64,000 nucleotides of DNA from an uncultured Rickettsiales bacterium (lineage in GTDB: Bacteria; Pseudomonadota; Alphaproteobacteria; Rickettsiales; UBA8987). The position numbers were made by a program, and so were the translations under genes. The notes below the pieces were generated by a model. It was not told the DNA's origin, made no database searches, and worked only from the letters and a program-made list of their open reading frames with translations. The stretch covers positions 910-64,909 of the forward strand of contig CAZPQM010000010.1 of the NCBI GenBank assembly GCA_964588995.1, read 5' to 3'. Every line of letters begins with the position of its first letter. Within the stretch, counting starts at the first letter, position 1. Below are positions 1,579 through 58,584 of the stretch, piece by piece.

Positions 1579-2421
1579 ATGATTGAAAATACCGTGATTG
1601 CGATTCCGGCACGGATGGCCTCGGTGCGCTTGCCCGGCAAACCGCTGGTGGAAATTGCCGGAAAGCCCATGATTGCACATGTTGTCACCCGAGCACTGGA
1701 AGCGGAGTTGGGCGAGGTGATTGTCGCGTGTGATGATGCGCGGATCGCAGAAGTCGCCGAGCAGGCAGGCGCCATTCCGGTTATGACGGGCGATCATCAC
1801 CAATCGGGCAGTGACCGGATTGTAGAGGCCTTGGAGAAACAGTACGGTCTTTTGACCCCTCACCCTAACCCTCTCCCGGCGGGAAAGGGGATAAAGAAGG
1901 TAATCTCTCCCTCTGGGAGAGGTCGAGACAGCGCAGCTGTCGAGGGTGAGGGAATAAACGTCCCGGATATCATCGTCAACCTGCAAGGTGATCTGCCGAC
2001 GATTTCACCGCAAGCTATCCGCGCCGCCGTAGCGCCGTTTGTGCACACTGAGGCCGACATCGTCACGCTTGCCGCGCTGATTCACACCCCGGAGGAGCGC
2101 GAGAACCCGAATGTGGTCAAGCCGGTCGTCGCGTGGCATGCGGACGAAACCGAAGGCCGCGCGCTTTACTTCACCCGCGCAACGGCGCCTTACGGTGAAG
2201 GCACGCTCTACCATCATATCGGACTCTATGCCTATCGTCGCGATGCGCTCATGCGCTTTACCAAGCTGCCGCCAAGTAAGCTCGAGCAACGCGAGCGGCT
2301 GGAACAACTCCGTGCATTAGAAAACGGGATGAAGATTCATGTAGTGCGCGTGGATGAGGTGCCCCTCGGCGTCGATACCCCGGCTGATGTGGAAAAGGCC
2401 GAGGGGATGCTGCAAATATAG
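1579..2421 (+). CDS. kdsB: 3-deoxy-manno-octulosonate cytidylyltransferase (CMP-KDO synthetase)
   Basis: The 280-aa ORF matches the KdsB pattern throughout: IPARMASVRLPGKPL, GKPMI, DHHQSGSDR, NLQGDLP, HIGLYAYR, LEQLRALENG, GVDTPADV. It carries a ~32-aa insertion (see repeat 1857-1952). Confidence 0.9.
   Translation: MIENTVIAIPARMASVRLPGKPLVEIAGKPMIAHVVTRALEAELGEVIVACDDARIAEVAEQAGAIPVMTGDHHQSGSDRIVEALEKQYGLLTPHPNPLPAGKGIKKVISPSGRGRDSAAVEGEGINVPDIIVNLQGDLPTISPQAIRAAVAPFVHTEADIVTLAALIHTPEERENPNVVKPVVAWHADETEGRALYFTRATAPYGEGTLYHHIGLYAYRRDALMRFTKLPPSKLEQRERLEQLRALENGMKIHVVRVDEVPLGVDTPADVEKAEGMLQI
1857..1952. repeat. 96-bp palindromic element inserted in-frame in kdsB
   Basis: Termini ccctcaccct (1857-1866) and agggtgaggg (1943-1952) are perfect inverted repeats, and inner ctctccc / gggagag motifs also pair. 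The element encodes ..PHPNPLPAGKGIKKVISPSGRGRDSAAVEGEG.. between the conserved KdsB blocks DHHQSGSDRIVEALEK and DIIVNLQGD. Confidence 0.65.
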
Positions 2422-27056: not shown

Positions 27057-30000
27057 TTACGGGGCCTGAATCGTAAAGGGAATACTGCGCTTAAAGAGGT
27101 CGCCCGCTACCAGCACCTGAATGGCGCGAATATCAAAATCCGGATCAAAGCCATAGGTCACAACACCATTGCTGGAACTGACGCTGTTGCGCTCAATGGT
27201 CTGCGAGCGTTCGTCATAGGCGACCACCCCGATGATGCGGTCCTGCATGTCGGGTGGTAAGGTGACGTTGACCGAACGCATCATACCCTGCTCTTCAAAC
27301 GAAATGGTTACCCCATTATATGCCGTTGGAGTAAAACGGTCCTCCATGGAATTCACACGATACTGCAGCACATCAACATTGACCGGCAGCGTCAATCGCA
27401 CATTACCTTCGACCAGCCCGATATTACCCAGCTCCACCGCATTGTTCAGCGCAATAGAACGGTCTCCGCCAACATCACCTCCAGGCAAGGGCTCAAGCTC
27501 CATTTCTGTAAATATACCGCTTTCAAAATCCGATTCGGCCGCATACACTTCATTACCGGCAACATCTTTCACGCTATTAATATCTACCGAAACCGTACCG
27601 CCTTTACCGGACTCCACGTTCATCAACCCACTGAAGCGTCCAAGCAGCGGGAGTTGCACTTGGTCACCCGTTTCCCGGATCTGGCCCAGACGGAGCGCGA
27701 ACGGACCCGCATTAAACACATATGGCCCTTCGAAGACGACCAGCTCGCTTTGCAGGATCTTTTCGTATTGCTCCGCCGACACTTTATACGGGAGCGGCGG
27801 CACATCCATCGGTCGACCACTGCTTGTAAACAGGTCGTCCGGTAGATTGACCGGCGGTGCAGGTGGCAACGCCTGCGTCTCAGGCTGAGGAGCGACTATC
27901 GGCGGCGGCGCAATGGGCTCTGCAGGCACGGGAGATGGCGGCGCTATAGGCTCACCCGGCAGCGGCGGCACTCCGACATCTTCACCCGGAAGCGGGGGCG
28001 GCATATCACCGCCTAGTTGTGCCGGAGGCGCCGGCGGTGGTGGCTCTAACGATTGACCCGGAACCGGTGCGGGAGGCGGCGGTGGCACCGCCATGCCCTG
28101 ATTTACGGGGGCCGGTGGCGGGGGCACATTGACAGGTTGATCAATCTGCTCAGGCGCATCCGGCGCCTGAATCGCAGGTGGCGGCGGAGCCATCGGTGGA
28201 GCACCAATCGGGCGTTGTTTGCTGGCAGGCGGGGGAGCTACACTGCCCTGAATCGCATCACCGATCATACTGCTGATCACCGCATAGGCCGCATAGGATG
28301 CAATCAGGAACAATACGAACAGGATAATAAAGAATTTCCAGAATTTAGACTTTTTGTAACGATGCACTTCGGTCTTCGCGATAATATCGTGCAGGGCCTG
28401 TTTACGACGCGTAAAGAGCGCCATAAAATAGCCGAGGAGCAGTGGTATCGTCGAGACGATTTTCATCAGATTTCTAACAAAGGCGTTACCTTTACTGACT
28501 TTTTCACCACCAGAACGGACGACCTTAATCCCACAAATGCGCTTACCAAAGGTGGCCTGATATTTTCCGCCTTCAAGCAGCGTTGCATAGATCAACCAGA
28601 GTGAAAGACCAAGCAAACCGGCAATGACTTCGCCTCCGTCCGGGCCGATCATCATAACTAAACCGACCGTTATAACGACCAGCAATAGATTGACAATCAA
28701 CCCGTCGATAAGCGCTGCGCCAAACCGGCTCATAAAGCCTGCGAACTGTTGATTCGGATCATTTTTCGCAGCAATAAAGTCCGGCATATCCTCCTGGTGA
28801 TCGTCTGCAGGGGAGGCTTTGGAAGCCGGTTTTCGCGACGGAGCGGAAGGCGGTTCAGGCGGTTGCTCGGATGCGATCCCTTCACCATGCCCGGCATCAA
28901 TATTGCTGGTTGCGGCGCTGGCCGCCGCGAGCGGGTCAATACCCTGACCGATTTCTTCCGGCTGCACATCTTTTCCGGACTCAACGTCGGACCAGGAGCT
29001 GGAAAGCCCTTCTCCTGCTGGCGCAGGTTCTGCAGGTTGGGGTGGTACGGCACCGGAAGGGTGTTGCGGATGTGGCGGCGGCCCGGCAGCCGGCGCAGGC
29101 TCTGAAGTTTGCGGTTGTGGCTGTAGCGGCGGAGGTGACGCCACGGTTTGTGACGGCGTTTCCGCGTTGGGCGCTTGCTGCATCGTATCGGTCACGGGCG
29201 GTACCTGCCCTTGCGCTCCGTGCTCAACATCGGACCAGGAGGATTTGCTTCCCGGCATGGCATTCATCGTATCTGTAACGCTGGACGGCTGATTGACAGG
29301 CGCTTCCGGTTGCGGTTGCGGGCTGGGCATATCCGTGGAGGCGCTCGCAAACGGGCTGGCTTCTTCTTGTTGTGACTCCCCTGATTGTTCGGCTGCAGGA
29401 GGAACTGCTTCCGGTTCGGGGGGAGGCTCTGGTGTTGCCATTGGTTGCTCGCCACCGGCTGCCGTTTCAGAAAAAGGCGAGGCCATTTCACCATATTCCG
29501 GTAGCTGCCCGGGTAATTCCTGAACGGATTGTGTTGGTTCAGCTGCAGGTGGGGCGGGCTGCTCGGGCACCGGTTCCGGCGGTACAATAGGGTTGATGGG
29601 CTCGGGTGGCGCATTTTCCTGCATCGGGGGCTGCTCAGGCTGCGCTGGCGGCAACTCCGGTTGAGGAGGCGGTTGTTGCGCTGCGGCAGGCTCTACCGAT
29701 TCAACTGGCGCTGGCTCGGGCGGCTGCGGCATTTCCATTTGCGGCTCCGACGCCTCGTCACCGCCGGATTCAATCGTGCTCCAACTGCTCGTGGCCAATG
29801 CTTCGCTGGGAGAATCACTTTCTGGCTGCGGGGTGTGCACAGGCTCAACCTCGGGCATTGGCGCAAGTTCCTCAGCTGGCGGCTCTACCCTGTTTTCAGA
29901 GGGTTGTGCCGAAGACAGTTCAGCTGCAGCAGGCTGTTCATCCATAAAAGAAATTGGCTCCGGTTCGGCGGGTAACTCCGGCTGCGCGGGTGCATTCGCA

Positions 30001-30635
30001 ACGGTTTCTGCCGACGGTTGCTCCGCAGGCGACGCTTCCGGTACAGGCGGCATTACCGGGTCGACCATAGGCTCCGGCGAGGGTGGTAACTCGGCATCAC
30101 GCCCCGGAATCGGTGGCGTATTATCTGCTGAAGGTGCGGGTGGCTCGGGTTGCACATCCCCTTCAGGCCGCATATGTTCAGGTACCGGGTTTTCCGGCAG
30201 CGGAGGTTCAAAAGCCGGCGGTGGTGCAATTTCCGGTGCTTCTTGAGAGGCCGCTTCCGAGTCCTCTGGCGCTTCGGAACCGGTCTGGCCGGACATATCC
30301 AATGTCGTCACCGGCTGCTCACCGGTCATCACCTGCGGATCGTCGGGACGGCTTTGTGGCTGGGGCTGCTCCGGCGCGGCTTCCGTTTCCTGCGGCTGTG
30401 TTTCTGTTGCAGCTTGGGGCTCTTGCGGTAGTGTTTCCTGCGGTTCGGCAGCAGGCTGATTCGGATCGGGCGGGGTGTTTTCCGGTATAGGAGCAGCAGC
30501 ATCACCCGGATCGCCCGGCATAGCGAACGGGTTGGCATAGGGGTCGTGCCCCTGATTATCCTCCGTAGGAGGTGGCTGATTTTCGGGTGTTTTTTCGTCC
30601 CCACTCATAGATTTATCTACCTGATTAACCTTCAA
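27057..30635 (-). CDS. 1192-aa proline-rich protein with a central RDD membrane domain
   Basis: aa ~631-770, FAGFMSRFGAALIDGLIV...ATFGKRICGIKVV...QALHDIIAKTEV, is an RDD-family pattern with TM helices. The N-terminal ~590 aa are P/E/Q-rich and carry three SSWS(D/T)(V/I)E(S/H)G motifs. The C-terminal part is a proline-rich linker plus a ~300-aa domain with ordinary (non-low-complexity) composition. Confidence 0.75.
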   Translation of the reverse strand: MKVNQVDKSMSGDEKTPENQPPPTEDNQGHDPYANPFAMPGDPGDAAAPIPENTPPDPNQPAAEPQETLPQEPQAATETQPQETEAAPEQPQPQSRPDDPQVMTGEQPVTTLDMSGQTGSEAPEDSEAASQEAPEIAPPPAFEPPLPENPVPEHMRPEGDVQPEPPAPSADNTPPIPGRDAELPPSPEPMVDPVMPPVPEASPAEQPSAETVANAPAQPELPAEPEPISFMDEQPAAAELSSAQPSENRVEPPAEELAPMPEVEPVHTPQPESDSPSEALATSSWSTIESGGDEASEPQMEMPQPPEPAPVESVEPAAAQQPPPQPELPPAQPEQPPMQENAPPEPINPIVPPEPVPEQPAPPAAEPTQSVQELPGQLPEYGEMASPFSETAAGGEQPMATPEPPPEPEAVPPAAEQSGESQQEEASPFASASTDMPSPQPQPEAPVNQPSSVTDTMNAMPGSKSSWSDVEHGAQGQVPPVTDTMQQAPNAETPSQTVASPPPLQPQPQTSEPAPAAGPPPHPQHPSGAVPPQPAEPAPAGEGLSSSWSDVESGKDVQPEEIGQGIDPLAAASAATSNIDAGHGEGIASEQPPEPPSAPSRKPASKASPADDHQEDMPDFIAAKNDPNQQFAGFMSRFGAALIDGLIVNLLLVVITVGLVMMIGPDGGEVIAGLLGLSLWLIYATLLEGGKYQATFGKRICGIKVVRSGGEKVSKGNAFVRNLMKIVSTIPLLLGYFMALFTRRKQALHDIIAKTEVHRYKKSKFWKFFIILFVLFLIASYAAYAVISSMIGDAIQGSVAPPPASKQRPIGAPPMAPPPPAIQAPDAPEQIDQPVNVPPPPAPVNQGMAVPPPPPAPVPGQSLEPPPPAPPAQLGGDMPPPLPGEDVGVPPLPGEPIAPPSPVPAEPIAPPPIVAPQPETQALPPAPPVNLPDDLFTSSGRPMDVPPLPYKVSAEQYEKILQSELVVFEGPYVFNAGPFALRLGQIRETGDQVQLPLLGRFSGLMNVESGKGGTVSVDINSVKDVAGNEVYAAESDFESGIFTEMELEPLPGGDVGGDRSIALNNAVELGNIGLVEGNVRLTLPVNVDVLQYRVNSMEDRFTPTAYNGVTISFEEQGMMRSVNVTLPPDMQDRIIGVVAYDERSQTIERNSVSSSNGVVTYGFDPDFDIRAIQVLVAGDLFKRSIPFTIQAP

Positions 30636-32495: not shown

Positions 32496-32571
32496 GATCC
32501 CGTAGCTCAGTTGGTAGAGCGTCTGACTTTTAATCAGAATGTCACAGGTTCGAATCCTGTCGGGATCACCA
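32496..32571 (+). tRNA. tRNA-Lys (anticodon UUU)
   Basis: Hand-folded cloverleaf: acceptor gatcccg/cgggatc, D arm gctc-agttggta-gagc, anticodon arm tctga-cTTTTaa-tcaga, T arm acagg-ttcgaat-cctgt, discriminator A, encoded CCA. 76 nt. Confidence 0.95.
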
Positions 32572-33859: not shown

Positions 33860-35605
33860 ATGACAGACGCATTGGATATGAACACGCTGCTGAGCGCGAA
33901 TAGCTGGCCGTTTCAGGAGGCAAAAAAGCTCAAAGAGCGTATCGAAAAAACACCGCCGGAAAAAGGCTATGTGCTGTTTGAAACCGGCTACGGCCCTTCC
34001 GGCCTGCCGCATATCGGCACGTTCGGCGAAGTGTTCCGCACGACTATGGTCCGTCAGGCCTTTGCGCGGATTTCCCACTATCCGACCCGGCTGATCGCCT
34101 TCTCGGATGATATGGACGGTTTGCGTAAAGTTCCGGATAACGTGCCAAACCCGAAGCTACTTGAGGCAAATCTGGGCAAGCCACTCACCGAAGTGCCCGA
34201 CCCGTTTGAGCAATATGACAGCTTCGCCGCGCATAACAACGCTAAGCTTCGTGAGTTTCTTGATCAGTTCGGCTTCGCCTATGAATTCAAAAGCGCAACG
34301 GAATGCTACCGCTCCGGTGAGTTCGATGAGGCGCTACTGGCCGCCCTGAAGCAATATGACGCTATTATGAAAATTATGCTGCCGACGCTCGGAGAAGAAC
34401 GTCAGCAAACCTATTCGCCCTTTATGCCGATTGACCCCGAAACGCGGCAGGTCTTACAGGTCAAAACCTTAGAGACGCGACCCGAACAAGGTACGATTAT
34501 ATATGAGCACCCTGAACACGGGCCAACCGAAACCAAAGTCACGGGCGGCGCCGTCAAACTGCAATGGAAACCTGATTGGGGCATGCGCTGGGCGGCGCTG
34601 GGTGTCGATTATGAAATGCACGGTAAGGATCTAACGCCATCGGTGGTGGTGTCGAGCAAGATTGCACGTGTGCTGTTGAAAGAGATGTATACTCGTAACT
34701 CCCCCTTGACGGGGGAGCCTGAGAATGCGGATGCATTGTCAGGTGGGGGTGGTATTATCCAAACCCACACCCCCCCTCCTGCATCTAAGATGCAGACTCC
34801 CCCGCAAGGGGGGAGTTACACCCTACCCGAACCGCCACTGACCTACGTCTATGAAATGTTTTTGGATGAGAAGGGCGAGAAAATTTCCAAATCCAAAGGC
34901 AACGGCATCAGTCTGGAGGATTGGCTGAGTTACGGTACGCCGGAAAGCCTTGCACTCTATATGTTCAATAATCCGCGCAAGGCCAAACGGCTGTATTTCG
35001 ACGTGATCCCTCAGCATGTCGATGAATATCTGAAACATCTGCAAGCGGTTGACCCCGAGAATCATGTGAAGCTGCTGCTGAATCCGGTCTGGCATATTCA
35101 TAACGGTGAGGTGCCGGAGGACGCAGTACCGATAACTTTCAGCCTGCTGCTCAACCTCGCAAGCGCGTGCAACCCGGAAGATAAATCGGTGCTCTGGGGC
35201 TTTATTACGCGCTATCAGCCGGACGCTATGCCGGAAACGCATAAACTGCTCGATGAGCTGGTGGAATATGCGATTGCGTACTATGAAGATTTTGTGAAAC
35301 CGCATAAGGAATATCACACGCTCTGCGACAAAGGCCGCGCGATCATGGAAGATATGAAGGACCGGCTACGCAAGGTTGCTGATCCGAATGATCCGGCAGA
35401 ATTGCAGCAAGTGGTGCTGGATACGGCAAAAGCGCATGGTTTTGAAAAAGACACGATGCGTGATGCCTATAAGCTGCTGTACCGCACCCTCTTCGGGCAG
35501 GAATCCGGGCCGCGCATGGGGAGCTTCATCGCGCTTTACGGGGTCGAGGAAACAATCGGGCTGATAGACGAAGCGCTCGCGCGGACCAACGATGAAGCGG
35601 CGTAA
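33860..35605 (+). CDS. lysS: lysyl-tRNA synthetase, class I
   Basis: FETGYGPSGLPHIGTFGEV (HIGH-type) and GEKISKSKGNG (KMSKS-type) motifs with class I LysRS organisation. A ~45-50-aa repeat-derived insertion lies ~25 aa upstream of the KISKS loop. Confidence 0.9.
   Translation: MTDALDMNTLLSANSWPFQEAKKLKERIEKTPPEKGYVLFETGYGPSGLPHIGTFGEVFRTTMVRQAFARISHYPTRLIAFSDDMDGLRKVPDNVPNPKLLEANLGKPLTEVPDPFEQYDSFAAHNNAKLREFLDQFGFAYEFKSATECYRSGEFDEALLAALKQYDAIMKIMLPTLGEERQQTYSPFMPIDPETRQVLQVKTLETRPEQGTIIYEHPEHGPTETKVTGGAVKLQWKPDWGMRWAALGVDYEMHGKDLTPSVVVSSKIARVLLKEMYTRNSPLTGEPENADALSGGGGIIQTHTPPPASKMQTPPQGGSYTLPEPPLTYVYEMFLDEKGEKISKSKGNGISLEDWLSYGTPESLALYMFNNPRKAKRLYFDVIPQHVDEYLKHLQAVDPENHVKLLLNPVWHIHNGEVPEDAVPITFSLLLNLASACNPEDKSVLWGFITRYQPDAMPETHKLLDELVEYAIAYYEDFVKPHKEYHTLCDKGRAIMEDMKDRLRKVADPNDPAELQQVVLDTAKAHGFEKDTMRDAYKLLYRTLFGQESGPRMGSFIALYGVEETIGLIDEALARTNDEAA
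34695..34819. repeat. composite palindromic element inside lysS, translated in-frame
   Basis: The outer units gtaa-ctccccc-ttgac-gggggag (34695-) and ctccccc-gcaag-gggggag-ttac (-34819) are each hairpins and are inverted repeats of one another. Further hairpins lie between them (cctgagaatgc/gcattgtcagg, ctgcatct/agatgcag). Confidence 0.55.
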
Positions 35606-36179
35606 AGAAGATGCTTCCGGCAATCTCTCCGCTCGTAATCAGGGTGGGAGAGAGGGGCTACGCTCTGGAGAGGATGGGGGTGAGATGGCCCCCCTCCCAA
35701 CCTCCCCGCGCACGCAGGGGGAGGAGTTAAAGGTAAACAGCACGCCGGGAGAAAAGCTAAAGAATATCTCTCTCCCGCCTACGGAAAATCCACTCATCTC
35801 CCCCCCCCTTGCGGAAAATCCCCCTATCTCCCCCCCGCCTGCGGGGGGGATTAAGGGGGGGCCAAAAGCCCCTGCCAGTCATCCTACCCATCTCCTGCGC
35901 TTTGTCGTCCGCCGGGTTATCGGGGCGAATGTCCTGCTGCTGACCGTCATCGGAGTGTGCCTGCTTGAATACCGCCATGCGCTGCTTTTGGCAGGGCTTT
36001 GCGCATTCGGATTCCTACATAATTTCAACCTGCTGAGATGGTATATCACGGAAAAGGCAGATTACCTCACTCCGGAGATACGTTCGCAGCTCGCTCCCAT
36101 CATGTTCATCATACCCGGCTTGCTCACCACGCCATACCTGATCGCTGCGTTGGCAGGGCTCGTGCTGTTTACGGTGTGA
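35592..36179 (+). CDS. possible small membrane protein (only the C-terminal half looks genuine)
   Basis: In the 195-aa ORF the first ~95 aa are a translation of the repeat cluster. The last ~95 aa have three hydrophobic helices (VIGANVLLLTVIGVCLL, LLLAGLCAFGFL, IMFIIPGLLTTPYLIAALAGLVLF). The true start is unknown. Confidence 0.3.
   Translation: MKRRKEDASGNLSARNQGGREGLRSGEDGGEMAPLPTSPRTQGEELKVNSTPGEKLKNISLPPTENPLISPPLAENPPISPPPAGGIKGGPKAPASHPTHLLRFVVRRVIGANVLLLTVIGVCLLEYRHALLLAGLCAFGFLHNFNLLRWYITEKADYLTPEIRSQLAPIMFIIPGLLTTPYLIAALAGLVLFTV
35640..35870. repeat. cluster of C-tract/G-tract hairpin repeats downstream of lysS
   Basis: ctctggagagg..gggggtgag resembles the kdsB element's right arm. 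There is a hairpin cctcccc-gcgcacgca-ggggagg, direct repeats cggaaaatccNcNNatctccccccc at 30-nt spacing, and a hairpin tccccccc-gcctgc-ggggggga. Confidence 0.5.
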
Positions 36180-36735: not shown

Positions 36736-36894
36736 TTAGACCAAACGCGTTACGTCCGGAATTGGCGTGATTGCGTGCCTGTTCGCATCAAATGATTGGC
36801 AATTCTGGTGCAAGAAGATAAACAGCCATGTTTTCCGTTGGATTTTCCAAAAGATATTGTATTACTTACGGTAAGATATCTTGTTAGGGGGCGT

Positions 36895-39800
36895 ATGCCG
36901 ATAGGAGCTTATTTCCGTCGCAGTACAGCTATTGCGTTCATCGCGGGCAGTTTAATCACTGTCACCGCCCCTTTCGTGATGGCGCAAGCGATTGATTTCG
37001 GTCGTCCACTTATCAATGCTGCCGATCAGGGCAATCTCGAACAGGTAGAGCAGATTCTGGGCAAGGGCGTTAACCCTAACCGCCGGGGTAAATTTGAAGC
37101 GACCGCGCTGATGCGAGCCGCCTATAACGGCCATACTGACGTAGCTAAAGCATTGCTGGGCGCCGGTGCCGACGTCAATGCCCCCGATGTCGGTGGTGCG
37201 ACCGCGTTGCATCTGGCTGCGCGGGAAGGTCATAGCGAGCTCGCGACACTGCTGATCCGAAGCGGCGCTGATGTTAATTTGCGCGACGGAGAAGGTTGGA
37301 CGCCGCTGATGCGCGCCGTAGCCTCGGAAGAACCGCTCATTGTACAGAAGCTACTGGATGAAGGCGCTACCACCGGCGCCCGCGCCTTTACCGGAGAAAC
37401 CGCGCTGATCCTCGCCGTACGCCGCCGCAATGCCGAACTCGTGAGTACGTTGCTGCAATATGGCGCCGATCCTTCGCTGACCGATAACGACGGCTACAGC
37501 CCGATTGATATCGCTACCCAGCAAAACAGCGATGCGATGCGCTCACAGTTGATTGCGGCGAAGAAAGCGCCGCGCCCTGCACCGCGTCAGGATCCGCTAC
37601 CGCCTGCGTCCCTGCCTCCGGGCCGCTCCCCGGCAGCCGCATCCGAGCCGGTGCCTCCCTCCGATACCGGGCCGATCAGCGAATATAGTGCAGGGGCTAC
37701 TTACCTGCCACCGTCGATTGAGACGCCACTCGGCGAGGCGTTTGACGCACGGCTTTCCCGCTTTCCCGAGGGTGATCCCTACCGCTCTAAAGCAGTTGAG
37801 GCGGCGCGCCGTGTCGAGCAGGCACAGGCAGCACAACTTGCCGCCGAACGGGCCGCACGCAATGCCGCCGCCGAGCTGGAAGCCTTGCGCGAAAAAGAAC
37901 GGGAAGTGCAGCGTGCCGCCGTTGATGAGGAAGCCGCTCGCACTGCTGCTGCTCAGGCCGAAATTGAACGCATCCGTGCCGAGCTGGTGCTTGCAGAACG
38001 GGCCGTAGGCGAAGCCGAGAAAGATCTAAACCGTGCAAATGCGGAGCTGGAAGCGGTCAAAACACAGGCGGTGGAAGCGCTTGCCTCCCTTAATAGCGAG
38101 GTGAGTAGCGAAACGGCCCGGCTCAATCAGGAACTGCAGCAGGCGCAAGCTGCTATCCAGCGGGCGAAGGTCAATCGTCAGTCCGCTCAGCAACGAAAAA
38201 CCGAAGCGCTAGACCGGCAGGAAAAAGAAAATGCGCGCATGATGGCCGCCCGTAAAGCGGCGGATGAAGCGCTCGTGATCGCGCAGCAACGCGCTGCCGT
38301 AGTCGATGAGGCGCGGTCGGAGCTTCGTGCGTTTCAGCGGCAGGCGCAGGATCTGATTATCCGCGAAAGCCGCGGCGAAACACCGAATGGCCGCCGCCGT
38401 CCGGCCGCCAATGCTGCCCGTACCGATGAAGAATGGTGGAAGGAGCGCGCCGGGATCGAAGATACACCCCCGGAATCCGCTGCTACCCGCTTAGCCGGCT
38501 CACAAAGCGCCATGCAGCAAAGCCTGCAGAAGGCCGAATCGCTGGAGGCCAAAGTACGTGAGGAAAATGAGGCGCGTCAGGCTGCGCAGCGTGCTGAGAC
38601 CGAGGCTATGCGGGTCGCGGTCGAAGTCTCGCAGGTCGCGGCGCAAACCGCGGCAACAGTGGAGAATGCCGAGCAGGATATGCGCAAGGCCGCTGCCGCT
38701 ATCACTGCCGGGGAAACGCGCATCGCGGAAATTCAGGCTGCACTCGAACGGCAGGATCGTAAAATTGCCGATACGCGCCGTAAGATCGAGCAGCAGAATG
38801 CACTTGCCCTTAAAAAAGCCGAAGCCAATCAGGACGCGGCAGAAGTACAACTTGCCGAGGCACAGCAAACGGTCGGACAGCTTCAGGAGCAACTGGAGGC
38901 AGCACGGTTGATCGCATCCGAACGCACGCAGAAATTCCGCCGGATGCAAGCTATTTCCGCGCAAGAGGCCGAGCAGCGCGCACTTGAAGCGCGGCAGCGT
39001 TTAGCCGCAGCAGAAAAAGCAGCACGGGAAGCGGATAAGCGTATTGAGGCCTCCGTTGCCGAGGCGCGCAGGGCGGAACGCCTCGCACAAGCTGCCGAGG
39101 CGAAACGTCTCGCTGCGATTGAGGCAGAGAAAAAACGCCGCGAAGTGGAACTGATTAAAAAAGCGGAAACCGAGCGTATCCGCCGTATGCAACTGGCAAA
39201 AGCGCAGGAGGAGGCGGATCAGATTCTGGGTGAAGCCCGGCGGATGGAAGAACAGGCGGCGAATATTGCCGGTGCGGCCTCCGAACGGATTGAGCAGGCG
39301 CAGGCGGAAGAGCGGCTGGCGCAGGAAGCGATTGAAGAGGCCGAGGCAAAAATCCGCGCAGCGCAAATGGCGGAGGATAGCGTGGTTATGGCCAAGCAGC
39401 GCGCCGCAGAAGCTACGGAGCGGGCGCGACTGGCAGCGGCTGAGATCAAAGCCGCGCGTGCAGCAGCGCAGGCGGAAGAGGCGCGGAAGCGTCGCGAACT
39501 AGCCGAAGAGCAGGCGCGTATCATCGAAGAAGCCCGCAAGCGCCGCCGCGAAATCGAGCAGGCGGAAATTGCCGCTGCGCGTGAACGTGCCGAGAAAGCA
39601 GCGCAGGCAGCGCAACTGCTTGCTCAGAAAATGCAGGAAGCGGAGCGTATGGCAGCCGATGCGGCGCGGCGTGACAAATTCCTTGCCGCGCAGGATGCCG
39701 CAGCCGAGCTCAAGGAAAACCAGATCAGGCAGGAAGAGGCAAGCGCAGCGGAACGGCTCGCAAGCGCGATGGTCCGTGCGGCTGAAACCGAGTCGGAAGC

Positions 39801-41811
39801 CACCCTCGCGCAGGCAAAGGTGCGCCGCGCCGAACTCGATGCACAGGCACGTGAAATGGAAGCCGAGCTGAAAGCGGCACGCGAAGAGGCGGAACGTATC
39901 GCGCAGGCCACCATCCTCGCCGCCGAGGAAGAAGCCGCAGCTCGGATAGCAGCGGCGCAGCGGCGCATTCAGGAAGAGGAAGCGCGCCTCGCCGCCGCGC
40001 AGGAACAGGCGGAGATTGCCCGTATCGCCAAGCTGGAAGCGGCTGAGAAAGTGAAGGAAGCAAAAGCACGCGAAGCCGAGCGCCTCAAGCGTATCAAACT
40101 GGCCGAAGCGCAGGCCGAAGCCGAACGCAAGCTGGAGGAAGCGCGCATTCAGGCGCTGGAAGAAAAAGCGCGTGAGCGTATTCAGGCAGCGCGTCTGAAG
40201 GCGGAAGAAATCGAGAAAGCACAGCTGCAGGCGGCGCGAATCAAGGCCGAGGCCGAAGAAGAGAAACAGCTTGCTGAAGCACGTATACAGGCGGCGGAGG
40301 ATGCAGCACGCATAGCCGCGATGCGTATCCGTGCCGAAGAGGAAGCCGCGAAACGCGTCGCCGAGATGCGTATCCGCGATGCAGCGGAAGAAGCGGCCTT
40401 ATTGCAGGCGGAAAAGATCCGTGCAGCAGAAGAAAAAGCGATCGAAATCGCGAACGAAGAGCTGCAGAAAGCCGAGCAGCAGGCGAGTGCAATCCTGGAA
40501 GAGGCCGAACAGCAGGAGCAGCAATCGGCTGAGCTTTCCGCCACGATGCTGCGTATGGCGGAAGAAGAAGCCGAGCAGAAACGTCGTACGGCGGTTGAAG
40601 CCCTTGCCCGCGCCGAACTGGAAGCAGAGCAAAAACTGACACTGGCCGAAATCGAAGCCGAGCGGGCGCGTGCACGGGAATTGGCGCAAGCCCGGCGCGA
40701 TGCAGCCTTAACGGCTGAACAAATCCGGGCCGAAGCACGCGAACTTGCCCGTCTGGCCCGTGAGCGCGCACGCTTGGAGGAAGAACAGTCCGCGGAGATA
40801 GTTGAACAGCGCCGCGCAGAAGCCCGCCGGATTGCCGAGCAGGCTGACCGCACGATTGAAGAAGCCGAGCGCGAGGCGGAGCGCATAAAAGAACTGAAAA
40901 TCAAGCAGGCTGAGATTGAAGCGCTGGAGCGTGCCGCCCGTACCGCGGCAGAAGAACGGCTGCGGGCAAAAGAGCGCGCGGCCGAAGCGGCAGCTGCAGC
41001 AGAAGCTGAGCGCATCCGGGCTGAGGCGGCCAACCGCCGGGCTCTTGAGCAGGAACGGCTGATCCGTGAGCAATATCAAGGCCTGCCGGACTTTGTCGAT
41101 GAAACGGTGATCCGTGAGGATTTACAACGCGCCCGCGAAGAGGCCGAGCGGCTACAACGTGAAGCGCTGCAGGCTACTCCCACGGTAAAACCGCGCTCAC
41201 CGCGCCCTGAACCCGCACCGCCTGCCCAGCCTGAACCGCCTCGTGAGCCTGCCCCTGCCCCGCAAACTCCACCACAACAGCCACAGCTGGATTTACCGGA
41301 AGTGCAGGAACTAAGCCTGCCGGAATTAGAGGCGTCCTCCGATAAACCGTTACCGCGTGCAGCCAATCAGGAACCTACCACGGCAACCCTGCCGGAAGCG
41401 CTGAACGAAGAGATCGAATCGATCATTGCCGAACTGCCGGCACGGGAGAACCTCCCCTCACGGGCGCGTGATTCGGCGCGGGTACAAATCGCCGAAGCGG
41501 TCCGTGTCCCGGCTGACCAGAACGGCAATGTCGAATATGAATGGTTTGACCCGTCCGCCTCACCGGATACGGCGGCGCCCCTCTTTATTCAGGTCGGCCC
41601 GTTTGATTCGGAGGATTCCGCCGCGACCTATTTCACGACTGTGGTGAGCCGCAACCGCCTGACCGAATATAGTCTGAATGTCATGCCGCCCGCGGAAAGC
41701 CGCCCGGGCTATCGCCTCAAGATAGGCCCGATCGCGCGGCAAGGGCAGATTGCTGAACTCTGCGTCCTCTTCGGCAGTGAGGGCCTTGTCTGCTCGCAGC
41801 ATACCGAGTAA
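36895..41811 (+). CDS. 1638-aa exported protein: ankyrin repeats, a ~1150-aa A/E/R/K/Q coiled-coil region and a C-terminal SPOR domain
   Basis: The preferred ATG at 36895 follows AGGGGG and gives a signal-like MPIGAYFRRSTAIAFIAGSLITVTAPFVMAQA. Five or six ANK repeats lie at ~37015-37546 (TALMRAAYNGHTDVAKALLGAGADVN, TALHLAAREGH.., TPLMRAV..). The C-terminus LFIQVGPFDSEDSAATYF...GYRLKIGPIARQGQIAELC fits SPOR. Confidence 0.8.
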   Translation: MPIGAYFRRSTAIAFIAGSLITVTAPFVMAQAIDFGRPLINAADQGNLEQVEQILGKGVNPNRRGKFEATALMRAAYNGHTDVAKALLGAGADVNAPDVGGATALHLAAREGHSELATLLIRSGADVNLRDGEGWTPLMRAVASEEPLIVQKLLDEGATTGARAFTGETALILAVRRRNAELVSTLLQYGADPSLTDNDGYSPIDIATQQNSDAMRSQLIAAKKAPRPAPRQDPLPPASLPPGRSPAAASEPVPPSDTGPISEYSAGATYLPPSIETPLGEAFDARLSRFPEGDPYRSKAVEAARRVEQAQAAQLAAERAARNAAAELEALREKEREVQRAAVDEEAARTAAAQAEIERIRAELVLAERAVGEAEKDLNRANAELEAVKTQAVEALASLNSEVSSETARLNQELQQAQAAIQRAKVNRQSAQQRKTEALDRQEKENARMMAARKAADEALVIAQQRAAVVDEARSELRAFQRQAQDLIIRESRGETPNGRRRPAANAARTDEEWWKERAGIEDTPPESAATRLAGSQSAMQQSLQKAESLEAKVREENEARQAAQRAETEAMRVAVEVSQVAAQTAATVENAEQDMRKAAAAITAGETRIAEIQAALERQDRKIADTRRKIEQQNALALKKAEANQDAAEVQLAEAQQTVGQLQEQLEAARLIASERTQKFRRMQAISAQEAEQRALEARQRLAAAEKAAREADKRIEASVAEARRAERLAQAAEAKRLAAIEAEKKRREVELIKKAETERIRRMQLAKAQEEADQILGEARRMEEQAANIAGAASERIEQAQAEERLAQEAIEEAEAKIRAAQMAEDSVVMAKQRAAEATERARLAAAEIKAARAAAQAEEARKRRELAEEQARIIEEARKRRREIEQAEIAAARERAEKAAQAAQLLAQKMQEAERMAADAARRDKFLAAQDAAAELKENQIRQEEASAAERLASAMVRAAETESEATLAQAKVRRAELDAQAREMEAELKAAREEAERIAQATILAAEEEAAARIAAAQRRIQEEEARLAAAQEQAEIARIAKLEAAEKVKEAKAREAERLKRIKLAEAQAEAERKLEEARIQALEEKARERIQAARLKAEEIEKAQLQAARIKAEAEEEKQLAEARIQAAEDAARIAAMRIRAEEEAAKRVAEMRIRDAAEEAALLQAEKIRAAEEKAIEIANEELQKAEQQASAILEEAEQQEQQSAELSATMLRMAEEEAEQKRRTAVEALARAELEAEQKLTLAEIEAERARARELAQARRDAALTAEQIRAEARELARLARERARLEEEQSAEIVEQRRAEARRIAEQADRTIEEAEREAERIKELKIKQAEIEALERAARTAAEERLRAKERAAEAAAAAEAERIRAEAANRRALEQERLIREQYQGLPDFVDETVIREDLQRAREEAERLQREALQATPTVKPRSPRPEPAPPAQPEPPREPAPAPQTPPQQPQLDLPEVQELSLPELEASSDKPLPRAANQEPTTATLPEALNEEIESIIAELPARENLPSRARDSARVQIAEAVRVPADQNGNVEYEWFDPSASPDTAAPLFIQVGPFDSEDSAATYFTTVVSRNRLTEYSLNVMPPAESRPGYRLKIGPIARQGQIAELCVLFGSEGLVCSQHTE

Positions 41812-58206: not shown

Positions 58207-58283
58207 CGGGGTGTAGCGCAGTCTGGTAGCGCACTTGTCTGGGGGACAAGGGGTCGTGGGTTCAAATCCCGCCACTCCGACCA
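58207..58283 (+). tRNA. tRNA-Pro (anticodon GGG)
   Basis: Hand-folded: acceptor cggggtg/cactccg (one G-U), D arm gcgc-agtctggta-gcgc, anticodon arm cttgt-ctGGGgg-acaag, T arm gtggg-ttcaaat-cccgc, discriminator A, encoded CCA. 77 nt. Confidence 0.95.
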
Positions 58284-58311: not shown

Positions 58312-58584
58312 TAGACAATGTTAGCTAATTCTGAAGTATTTTGCCATGAGACTGATGTTGTTAAAGAACAAGGAAAATATCGCCGGGAATAGTGGGCTTA
58401 TTTCCAAGAGATTTTTCGCCGTTATTTGGCAACATCAGCCATGGTTCTGCTAATTGCAGCCTAAATCGCTGCTCGCAGCGTTAAAGCGCTTGCCAATAGA
58501 ACCACTATTAACTGCACGCTTTGTCTTGCGAATCAACGATTTAGGCTAGCAACAAAATATTTCAGAATTAGCTAACAGTGTCTA
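58312..58584. mobile_element. 273-bp non-coding element with 32-bp terminal inverted repeats (MITE-like) 29 nt downstream of tRNA-Pro
   Basis: tagacaatgttagctaattctgaagtattttg (58312-58343) and caaaatatttcagaattagctaacagtgtcta (58553-58584) match as inverted repeats at 30/32 positions. The interior has nested inverted repeats (ccatgagactgatgttg/caacatcagccatgg; gcctaaatcg/cgatttaggc) and no ORF. Confidence 0.6.

Follow-up and report, generated by a model that had tools for sequence, protein, structure and literature searches.

A probable copy of a dispersed GC-rich palindromic repeat within the class I lysyl-tRNA synthetase gene of an uncultured Rickettsiales bacterium

Introduction

Palindromic repeats that are read as part of a protein are an established phenomenon. 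Rickettsia palindromic elements (RPEs; Ogata et al. 2000 and 2002) are described in two articles as palindromic repeats of 100-150 bp that lie between genes and also in frame within housekeeping genes (PMC10969869, PMC1779305); the hosts of in-frame copies given there include dnaE and pheT, an aminoacyl-tRNA synthetase (aaRS) gene (PMC1779305), and the resulting proteins are apparently functional. Here we describe an element that resembles RPEs in a 64,000-nucleotide stretch of DNA from an uncultured Rickettsiales bacterium (assembly GCA_964588995.1, contig CAZPQM010000010.1; this whole stretch is called the window, and coordinates are those of the window unless another contig is named). The element is a 125-nt palindrome within lysS, the gene for class I lysyl-tRNA synthetase (LysRS).

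Other described repeats also invite comparison. Intragenic copies of repetitive extragenic palindromes (REPs) are concentrated in replication and repair genes, tRNA synthetases and pseudouridine synthases, and REPs of the CGTC type predominate in Alphaproteobacteria (Di Nocera et al. 2013, PMC3733652). Bacterial MITEs (miniature transposable elements with inverted repeats), such as Correia/NEMIS, ERIC and Nezha, occasionally have in-frame intragenic copies (reviewed in PMC10969869). In addition, whalefall-1 (RF01762) was described, on the basis of whale-fall metagenomes, as an orphan RNA motif that is non-coding (Weinberg et al. 2010, PMC2864571). An earlier note on the window, made from the sequence alone, had described a composite hairpin element in lysS and proposed that its C and G runs either are unusually stable or make the gene a weak point or a switch; that the element is a mobile repeat was not recognised. 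We put the probability at about 0.85 that the lysS element is one copy of a dispersed palindromic mobile repeat, RPE-like in behaviour and organised like REPINs, the doublets that REPs form.

Results

An additional segment in LysRS

The open reading frame (ORF) at 33860-35605 scored 796.8 bits in a profile search against NCBIfam NF001968 (lysine--tRNA ligase; cutoff 648). Its product matched PDB entry 1irx in sequence, and its predicted fold, with a Rossmann-fold core, resembled that of the class I LysRS of P. horikoshii (1irx_A; TM 0.74, E = 3.8e-26). We compared the protein with its 119 best orthologues in a 120-sequence alignment. The HIGH-type motif PHIGT (aa 50-54) and the KMSKS-type motif KISKS (aa 341-345) lay in invariant columns, and the window protein retained 90 of the 93 columns that are invariant among the 119 orthologues and 162 of the 167 conserved at 95% or more. 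The closest LysRS relatives were alphaproteobacterial metagenome-assembled genomes (MAGs) with identity of at most 67%. The nearest of these, P0002, comes from MAG GCA_030429725.1 (contigs JAUIEX01) and is 67% identical in the alignment. A single identical protein was matched among 5.8 billion proteins, and the other BLASTP matches listed were 513-551 aa long with at most 62% identity. A tRNA-Lys(UUU) gene lies at 32496-32571 on the same strand, 1.3 kb upstream of lysS, with a family-2 glycosyltransferase gene between the two.

33860..35605, + strand: class I lysyl-tRNA synthetase gene lysS (581 aa), host of the insertion (NF001968, 1irx, conserved columns)
34700..34828, + strand: extra segment relative to P0002, 129 nt, 43 codons, S281-P323 (protein alignments A1 and A4; codon comparison with the relative's locus L001)
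34880..34894, + strand: KISKS, the KMSKS signature loop, aa 341-345 (columns invariant or nearly so, A1 and A4)

The span from SSKIARV to YEMFL comprised 25 aa in 118 orthologues, 31 aa in P0002 and 74 aa in the window LysRS. Sized in this way, the insertion amounts to 43 residues over P0002. It was absent from all 119 aligned orthologues, and in a codon-level comparison the site was empty in L001, the lysS locus of the nearest relative. The earlier note had placed its element at 34675-34825, just upstream of the KMSKS loop, and had held that the same segment in unrelated LysRS lineages would speak against its view. The location was right, as the extra segment ends 17 residues ahead of KISKS; the real unit is slightly narrower (34695-34819), and no unrelated lineage among the 119 best orthologues carried the segment.

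AlphaFold2 run on the 120-sequence alignment gave a mean pLDDT of 90.1 and a pTM of 0.87. The only segment with a pLDDT below 50 was residues 285-312, within the insert, and the flanking helix (256-280) and strand (327-331) were predicted confidently. In this model the insertion most likely adds a floppy 43-residue loop to LysRS. The window protein and P0002 also have in common a 6-aa expansion at the site (LKEMYTRN / SKHMDRKT, against GG elsewhere), and from the alignment the loop would already have been slightly expanded in their common ancestor. Such evolutionary plasticity, so close to the KMSKS loop, could be taken to mean that the segment is a lineage-specific functional module of LysRS, such as a loop with a new regulatory or interaction role, in which the palindromic DNA would be incidental or exapted. 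We consider this improbable, because the segment is missing from every aligned orthologue, its peptide has a simple composition and predicted disorder, and copies of the same DNA element are found both outside long reading frames and within unrelated proteins (see below). The hairpins are also still nearly perfect, which points more to a recent insertion than to a refined protein module.

A composite palindrome that is open in one frame

The element is a 125-nt composite palindrome with four hairpins, and its outer hairpins are inverted copies of each other, as the earlier note had claimed. The 27-nt termini, GTAACTCCCCCTTGACGGGGGAGCCTG (34695-34721) and CAGACTCCCCCGCAAGGGGGGAGTTAC (34793-34819), are 85% complementary, with 71 nt between them. 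The outer hairpins are H1, CTCCCCC-TTGAC-GGGGGAG at 34699-34717, and H4, ACTCCCCC-GCAAG-GGGGGAGT at 34796-34816. They enclose H2, CTGAGAATGC-GGAT-GCATTGTCAG at 34719-34742, and H3, CTGCATCT-A-AGATGCAG at 34779-34795, and the structure is closed at its centre by the pairing of GTGGGGG with CCCCCCC. RNA folding of 34670-34840 gave -84.2 kcal/mol, whereas dinucleotide shuffles gave -53.2 +/- 4.2 (z = -7.46), and none of the 200 folded as well. The 64 kb contain two instances of the pattern CCCCC-N5-GGGGG, where 0.08 are expected, and both lie in this element. Each half of the palindrome was matched by R1, a covariance model of the half element described in the next section.

34695..34819, no strand assigned: the complete palindrome, a doublet in which two half elements face in opposite directions and whose ends are 27-nt inverted repeats (palindrome, fold, R1)
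34694..34749, + strand: left half element, comprising H1, H2 and the GGTGGGGG tail (34742-34749) (R1 59.3 bits, E = 4e-13, model positions 1-57 of 57)
34771..34820, - strand: right half element, comprising H4, H3 and the C7 tail (34770-34776) (R1 58.2 bits, E = 7.5e-13)

Five of the six frames through the element contain stops, and the sixth, which has none, is the frame of lysS. The element is read through in that frame, and the translation quoted in the earlier note is correct. The element contains six homopolymer runs (C5, G5, G5, C7, C5 and G6). The runs on which the earlier note had built are thus present, at 5-7 nt and not the 5-8 nt given; the longest is C7, and there is no G7 in the element, the G7 runs lying in a separate hairpin cluster (35843-35861).

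Six C/G runs of 5-7 nt within 125 nt of coding sequence are what might be expected of a contingency locus, in which homopolymers that change length often would toggle lysS, or of a selected weak point. Any change of +/-1 would indeed meet a stop inside the element and truncate LysRS before KISKS, and tract lengths differ among copies of the family (C5-C7, G5-G8). However, the tracts are conserved stems and tails of the family consensus. They are present in every copy, whether intergenic or in dnaE, mfd, mutS, ligA and other aaRS genes, and the lysS ORF stays intact through all six. Phase-variable tracts are usually longer than C7 and are found in surface or restriction-modification genes. Because Alphaproteobacteria normally rely on class I LysRS as their sole LysRS, an off state of lysS would be lethal. 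A contingency locus would have a long tract in a dispensable gene, with on/off length variants in the population; the tracts here are no longer than C7 and their host is probably an essential aaRS. We therefore regard the switch as highly improbable and the proposal as unsupported, while it is possible that the tracts are a mutational liability for lysS, a weak point in that sense.

A dispersed family of half elements

In a species-level scan (one genome per species) with a single-terminus pattern, GTAACTCCCCC-N4-6-GGGGGAG, we obtained scattered matches at about the number expected by chance, plus five in JAUIEX01, the genome of the nearest LysRS relative. Matches in several alphaproteobacterial MAGs (L004, L012, L032 and L043) stayed identical in the continuation past the scanned pattern. 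From such loci we recognised a half-element unit that consists of (G)TAAC, a hairpin ACTCCCCC(C)-loop-GGGGGAGT, a C, a variable hairpin and a GGTGGGGG(G) tail. Half elements occur singly or as inverted doublets; the lysS copy is a doublet, and further inverted doublets were found at L012, L021, L027 and L032.

The first hairpin is nearly invariant in an alignment of 19 sequences (A2). The second varies in sequence and length, and the base of H2 covaries: 100% of cells were paired and 22 were changed on both sides, which none of 500 shuffles equalled, and slid registers of the second hairpin paired at only 42-58%. In the fetched genome loci R1 found 29 half elements. It found the two lysS halves and no further strong match in the window, and at L001, where the relative's lysS lies, it found no half element. 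Of the 29 half elements, 22 carry GAGTC where the two hairpins join, an instance of GANTC, the motif methylated by CcrM in Alphaproteobacteria (alignment A3); in the lysS copy this site is lost in the left half (GAGCC) and retained in the right (GACTC). Lower-scoring half elements (33-37 bits) were found outside the Alphaproteobacteria, in a Fimbriimonas sp. MAG (L019) and a gammaproteobacterial MAG (L010), which suggests that the family, or its horizontal spread, reaches other phyla.

The family is also widespread, because a stricter three-part pattern matched at least 120 loci in JGI metagenomes. Among the metagenome loci listed we counted 140 element clusters, including 21 doublets in '+-' and 10 in '-+' orientation. 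A BLAST search of the consensus half element against 72,556 plasmids gave chance partial matches only, and the family is thus not on known rhizobial replicons.

In-frame copies in other genes

The nearest relative's genome, which has no copy in lysS, carries elements in other genes. A dnaE ORF of 1463 aa (L021; JAUIEX010000006.1, 3366-7757) contains four full elements, all in frame, which add about 300 residues to this replicative polymerase, and its Pfam domains are all present in order. A PF00133-type class I aaRS of JAUIEX01 (L027) contains two in-frame elements, the mfd gene of another MAG (L032) contains one, and the AlaRS gene of Fimbriimonas (L019) contains an in-frame half element. Of the 140 metagenome clusters listed, 25 lie in open frames of at least 300 aa; the remainder mostly appear intergenic, some of them close to a contig end. 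Host genes were confirmed by Pfam for about 17 of the 25. The other eight, without a Pfam domain, were judged to be probably spurious GC-rich frames.

Confirmed metagenome hosts, aaRS and replication: CysRS, ArgRS, another PF00133-type aaRS, a second dnaE
Confirmed metagenome hosts, repair and nucleic acid: exonuclease VII, a RecN/SMC-like protein, LigA, MutS, TatD
Confirmed metagenome hosts, tRNA-related: Fmt, TruA
Confirmed metagenome hosts, other: a type ISP restriction enzyme, a P-type ATPase, a PMT glycosyltransferase, an aminotransferase

Genes for aaRS, tRNA-related and replication/repair functions are strikingly over-represented among the hosts, in a sample that is biased toward long genes that cannot be lost. 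A recurring translated motif was xSP[LF]xGES..(S)GGG ... PP ... PPQGGSY, including its NSP[LF]xGES form; the lysS peptide to set beside it is NSPLTGEPENADALSGGGGIIQTHTPPPASKMQTPPQGGSYT. We had also looked to the window's 1192-aa ORF (27057-30635) for a reciprocal empty site in dnaE; it turned out to encode a proline-rich protein with a single RDD domain.

The host frame was open across the element in all of the Pfam-confirmed intragenic copies examined (about 20). This bears on two further explanations. The segment might never be translated, either because it is cut out of the transcript or because ribosomes bypass it in the manner of byp elements. The very stable RNA structure would suit this, and in yeast mitochondria GC-rich mobile hairpins are bypassed during translation. 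Removal would not require an open frame, however, and no intron or ribozyme family was matched in Rfam; we think the chance of this explanation slighter still than that of a switch. An artefact of assembly or binning could likewise have put a repeat into lysS, since the sequence appears to be from a metagenome-assembled contig and repeats are a classic source of misassembly. Both flanks, though, are collinear with one gene, the join keeps the frame in the sole stop-free frame of six, and assemblies made independently in many projects contain comparable in-frame copies. An artefact is the most improbable of the explanations that we considered.

Further repeats and features in the window

Two other regions of the window contain related repeats.

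1840..1965, + strand: second in-frame palindromic insertion, about 36 aa, in kdsB (ORF 1579-2421, CMP-KDO synthetase) (inverted repeat; breaks in alignments to PDB chains)
35620..35865, no strand assigned: degenerate related C/G hairpin cluster directly 3' of lysS (inverted repeat, weak R1 score)

The kdsB insertion contains an inverted repeat (1846-1866 / 1943-1963). Alignments with the KdsB chains in PDB break at query positions 87/130, against chain positions 90/97, and none of the solved KdsB structures has the insert (..LLTPHPNPLPAGKGIKKVISPSGRGRDSAAVEGEGINV..). Its CTCTCCC/GGGAGAG stem and GGGTGAGGG tail are those of a sister subfamily (GTAATCTCTCCCTCTGGGAGAGGTCGAGACAGCGCAGCTGTCGAGGGTGAGGG), and its half element at 1901-1953 scored 16.1 bits against whalefall-1, over the full length of the model, and 10.8 bits against R1.

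The cluster at 35620-35865 includes an inverted repeat (35820-35859), a C9 run, two G7 runs and a perfect hairpin, TCCCCCCC-GCCTGC-GGGGGGGA, at 35829-35850. Its R1 scores are weak (12-14 bits) and its fold has z = -2.6. It lies within a 195-aa ORF (35592-36179) without a Pfam match, whose C-terminal half is hydrophobic and possibly spans a membrane; the repeat DNA of the cluster is either intergenic or translated as well. The 64 kb hold just four perfect pyrimidine/purine hairpins, all of them at the lysS element, the kdsB insert or this cluster.

A repeat of another kind follows a tRNA-Pro(GGG) gene (58207-58283). Beginning 29 nt downstream is an AT-rich 273-bp unit whose ends are 32-nt inverted repeats (58312-58343 and 58553-58584) with 94% complementarity; it may represent a MITE unrelated to the lysS element, or a scar of integration. 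The window also encodes two unusual giant proteins, the 1192-aa RDD protein and, at 36796-41811, a protein of 1671 aa that has ankyrin repeats at its N terminus and a very long region, rich in Ala, Glu and Arg, that is probably a coiled coil. This second protein is a hint of a host-associated lifestyle.

Discussion

Origin of the lysS insertion

The reading that we favour is that the lysS element is a non-autonomous palindromic interspersed repeat, in which two inverted units form one long hairpin. It would have inserted into lysS after the lineage split from its nearest sequenced relative, in the loop that joins a long helix of residues 256-280 to the beta-strand of residues 327-331 ahead of the KMSKS loop, and the near-perfect hairpins suggest that it did so relatively recently. 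The copy may have survived because the element's sole stop-free frame was the one used and because the loop is tolerant of extra residues. The product would be a Gly/Pro/Ser/Thr-rich, disordered surface loop of 43 residues on an otherwise normal and functional class I LysRS. Since the insert lies in an open frame and in a tolerant loop, it is most likely transcribed and translated with the gene, to judge by the preservation of the reading frame. The C/G runs would have been inherited with the insertion as conserved stems and tails, without selection at lysS. If the element is a mobile repeat, its structure, its tracts and its in-frame state are all explained without selected instability.

Several observations weigh against this account. 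The window holds a single full copy of the lysS-element subfamily. Neither the comparison with L001 nor the flanks of ten full copies yielded a clear target-site duplication or a closely related empty-site allele. TA is present on both sides of the core in most copies, yet it is part of the palindrome, and there is no unambiguous direct repeat. The palindrome (125 nt) and the extra sequence (129 nt) differ in length, and the exact insertion boundaries are uncertain because the nearest relative is only about 67% identical. No transposase was identified, in loci that were not screened for transposases. The window LysRS also departs from otherwise invariant positions at G523A, W536A and F537Y; these are in the C-terminal helical domain, far from the insert, and could hint at some relaxed constraint on the protein. 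Finally, the transposition event, translation of the insert and retained activity of the enzyme are all inferred.

Comparison with described repeats

By behaviour, the closest described system is the RPEs. Like them, the lysS element belongs to an interspersed palindrome of 100-150 bp (here 125 nt) that is present in many copies (29 half elements and at least 120 metagenome loci), and it has in-frame copies in unrelated, apparently functional genes (lysS, dnaE, aaRS genes, mfd, ligA, mutS, fmt and truA). Both have alphaproteobacterial hosts; the likeness is one of behaviour, the sequences not having been compared directly. RPEs are AT-rich and Rickettsia genomes have about 30% GC, whereas the present family has C/G runs and a high GC content, and the window is about 52% GC. 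It also differs in being modular, with a two-hairpin half unit that occurs singly or as an inverted doublet and has a hypervariable, covarying second hairpin. Its hosts, moreover, are uncultured lineages other than Rickettsia, and it apparently extends beyond the Alphaproteobacteria.

In organisation the family is like REPs and REPINs, in which short stem-loop units are paired in inverted orientation into a larger hairpin, as in the lysS doublet. H1, with its 8-bp stem and 4-5-nt loop, is like a CGTC REP, and the excess of hosts among aaRS, tRNA-related and replication/repair genes echoes that reported for intragenic REPs (PMC3733652). However, the family termini are GTAAC, ATAAC, TTAAC or CCAAC (A2), not the GTAG (GTRG) 5' tetranucleotide of REPs. 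Where CGTC REPs have their tag, the family has CGAC or GTAAC; its stem opens with A-T followed by C-G in place of two A-T pairs, and it lacks a CCA tail. The unit, furthermore, has two hairpins and a G-rich tail. The strings CTCCCCC, GGGGGAG, NSPL and SPLEGE are not in the supplements of PMC3733652.

The element resembles MITEs in being small, non-coding in origin and multicopy, and its terminal inverted repeats (27 nt, 85%) are within the 15-30 bp typical of them. Its termini, however, are themselves hairpins, which is more REP-like; no clear target-site duplication was seen and no parent insertion sequence was identified, none having been searched for. The GAGTC at the hairpin junction recalls the CIR repeats that Chen and Shapiro are said to have reported from Caulobacter in 2003, which are reportedly CcrM-associated repeats of 110-190 bp with inverted repeats and a conserved GANTC. 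Those are said to be strictly intergenic; many copies of the present family are intragenic. The junction site might link the biology of the repeat to DNA methylation or replication.

At gathering thresholds Rfam matched only the two tRNAs in the window. At relaxed thresholds, matches to miRNA, snoRNA and CRISPR-repeat families were dismissed as chance hairpin matches, and only whalefall-1 was consistent. The whalefall-1 model matched the lysS halves with 15.5 bits (left) and 16.7 bits (right) over model positions 1-56 of 56, and gave full-length matches of 22.3-23.4 bits in L004, L021 and L043. These scores (15.5-23.4 bits) are below the gathering score of 37, so none of these copies belongs to whalefall-1 as Rfam defines it. 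The likeness lies in a GUA, a CUCYCC...GGRGAG hairpin, a variable second hairpin closed by ..GA/UC.. and then GGUGRGG; the kdsB copy (CUCUCCC/GGGAGAG, GGGUGAGGG) is nearer to whalefall-1 in sequence than the lysS copy. The motif was published as a non-coding RNA; neither mobility nor insertion into coding sequence was part of its description. From these resemblances whalefall-1 may itself be a repeat of the lysS-element superfamily, which we offer as a lead and not as a result.

Implications

Although coding palindromic repeats are well established, the GC-rich family, its breadth, its multiple insertions in essential genes and its possible identity with whalefall-1 appear to be undescribed in the literature searched. 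A broader reading, tentative and rather unlikely as the evidence stands, is that there is a large superfamily of GC-rich, double-hairpin, REPIN-like repeats that includes whalefall-1, spans uncultured Alphaproteobacteria and some other phyla, and persists, or perhaps inserts, preferentially in frame in aaRS, tRNA-modification and replication/repair genes. If this were true, protein-coding palindromes would be general and not a curiosity of Rickettsia, and the orphan whalefall-1 motif would gain a possible identity.

For annotation, such inserts inflate protein lengths and mimic lineage-specific loops in aaRS and polymerase genes, and they can be mistaken for structured RNAs or for contingency tracts. 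In lysS, the idea of a switch in an essential synthetase gives way to a documented mechanism, in which selfish palindromic DNA survives in essential genes through its translatability. If the lysS element is such a repeat, RPE-like behaviour would extend to a GC-rich repeat family in uncultured bacteria outside Rickettsia.

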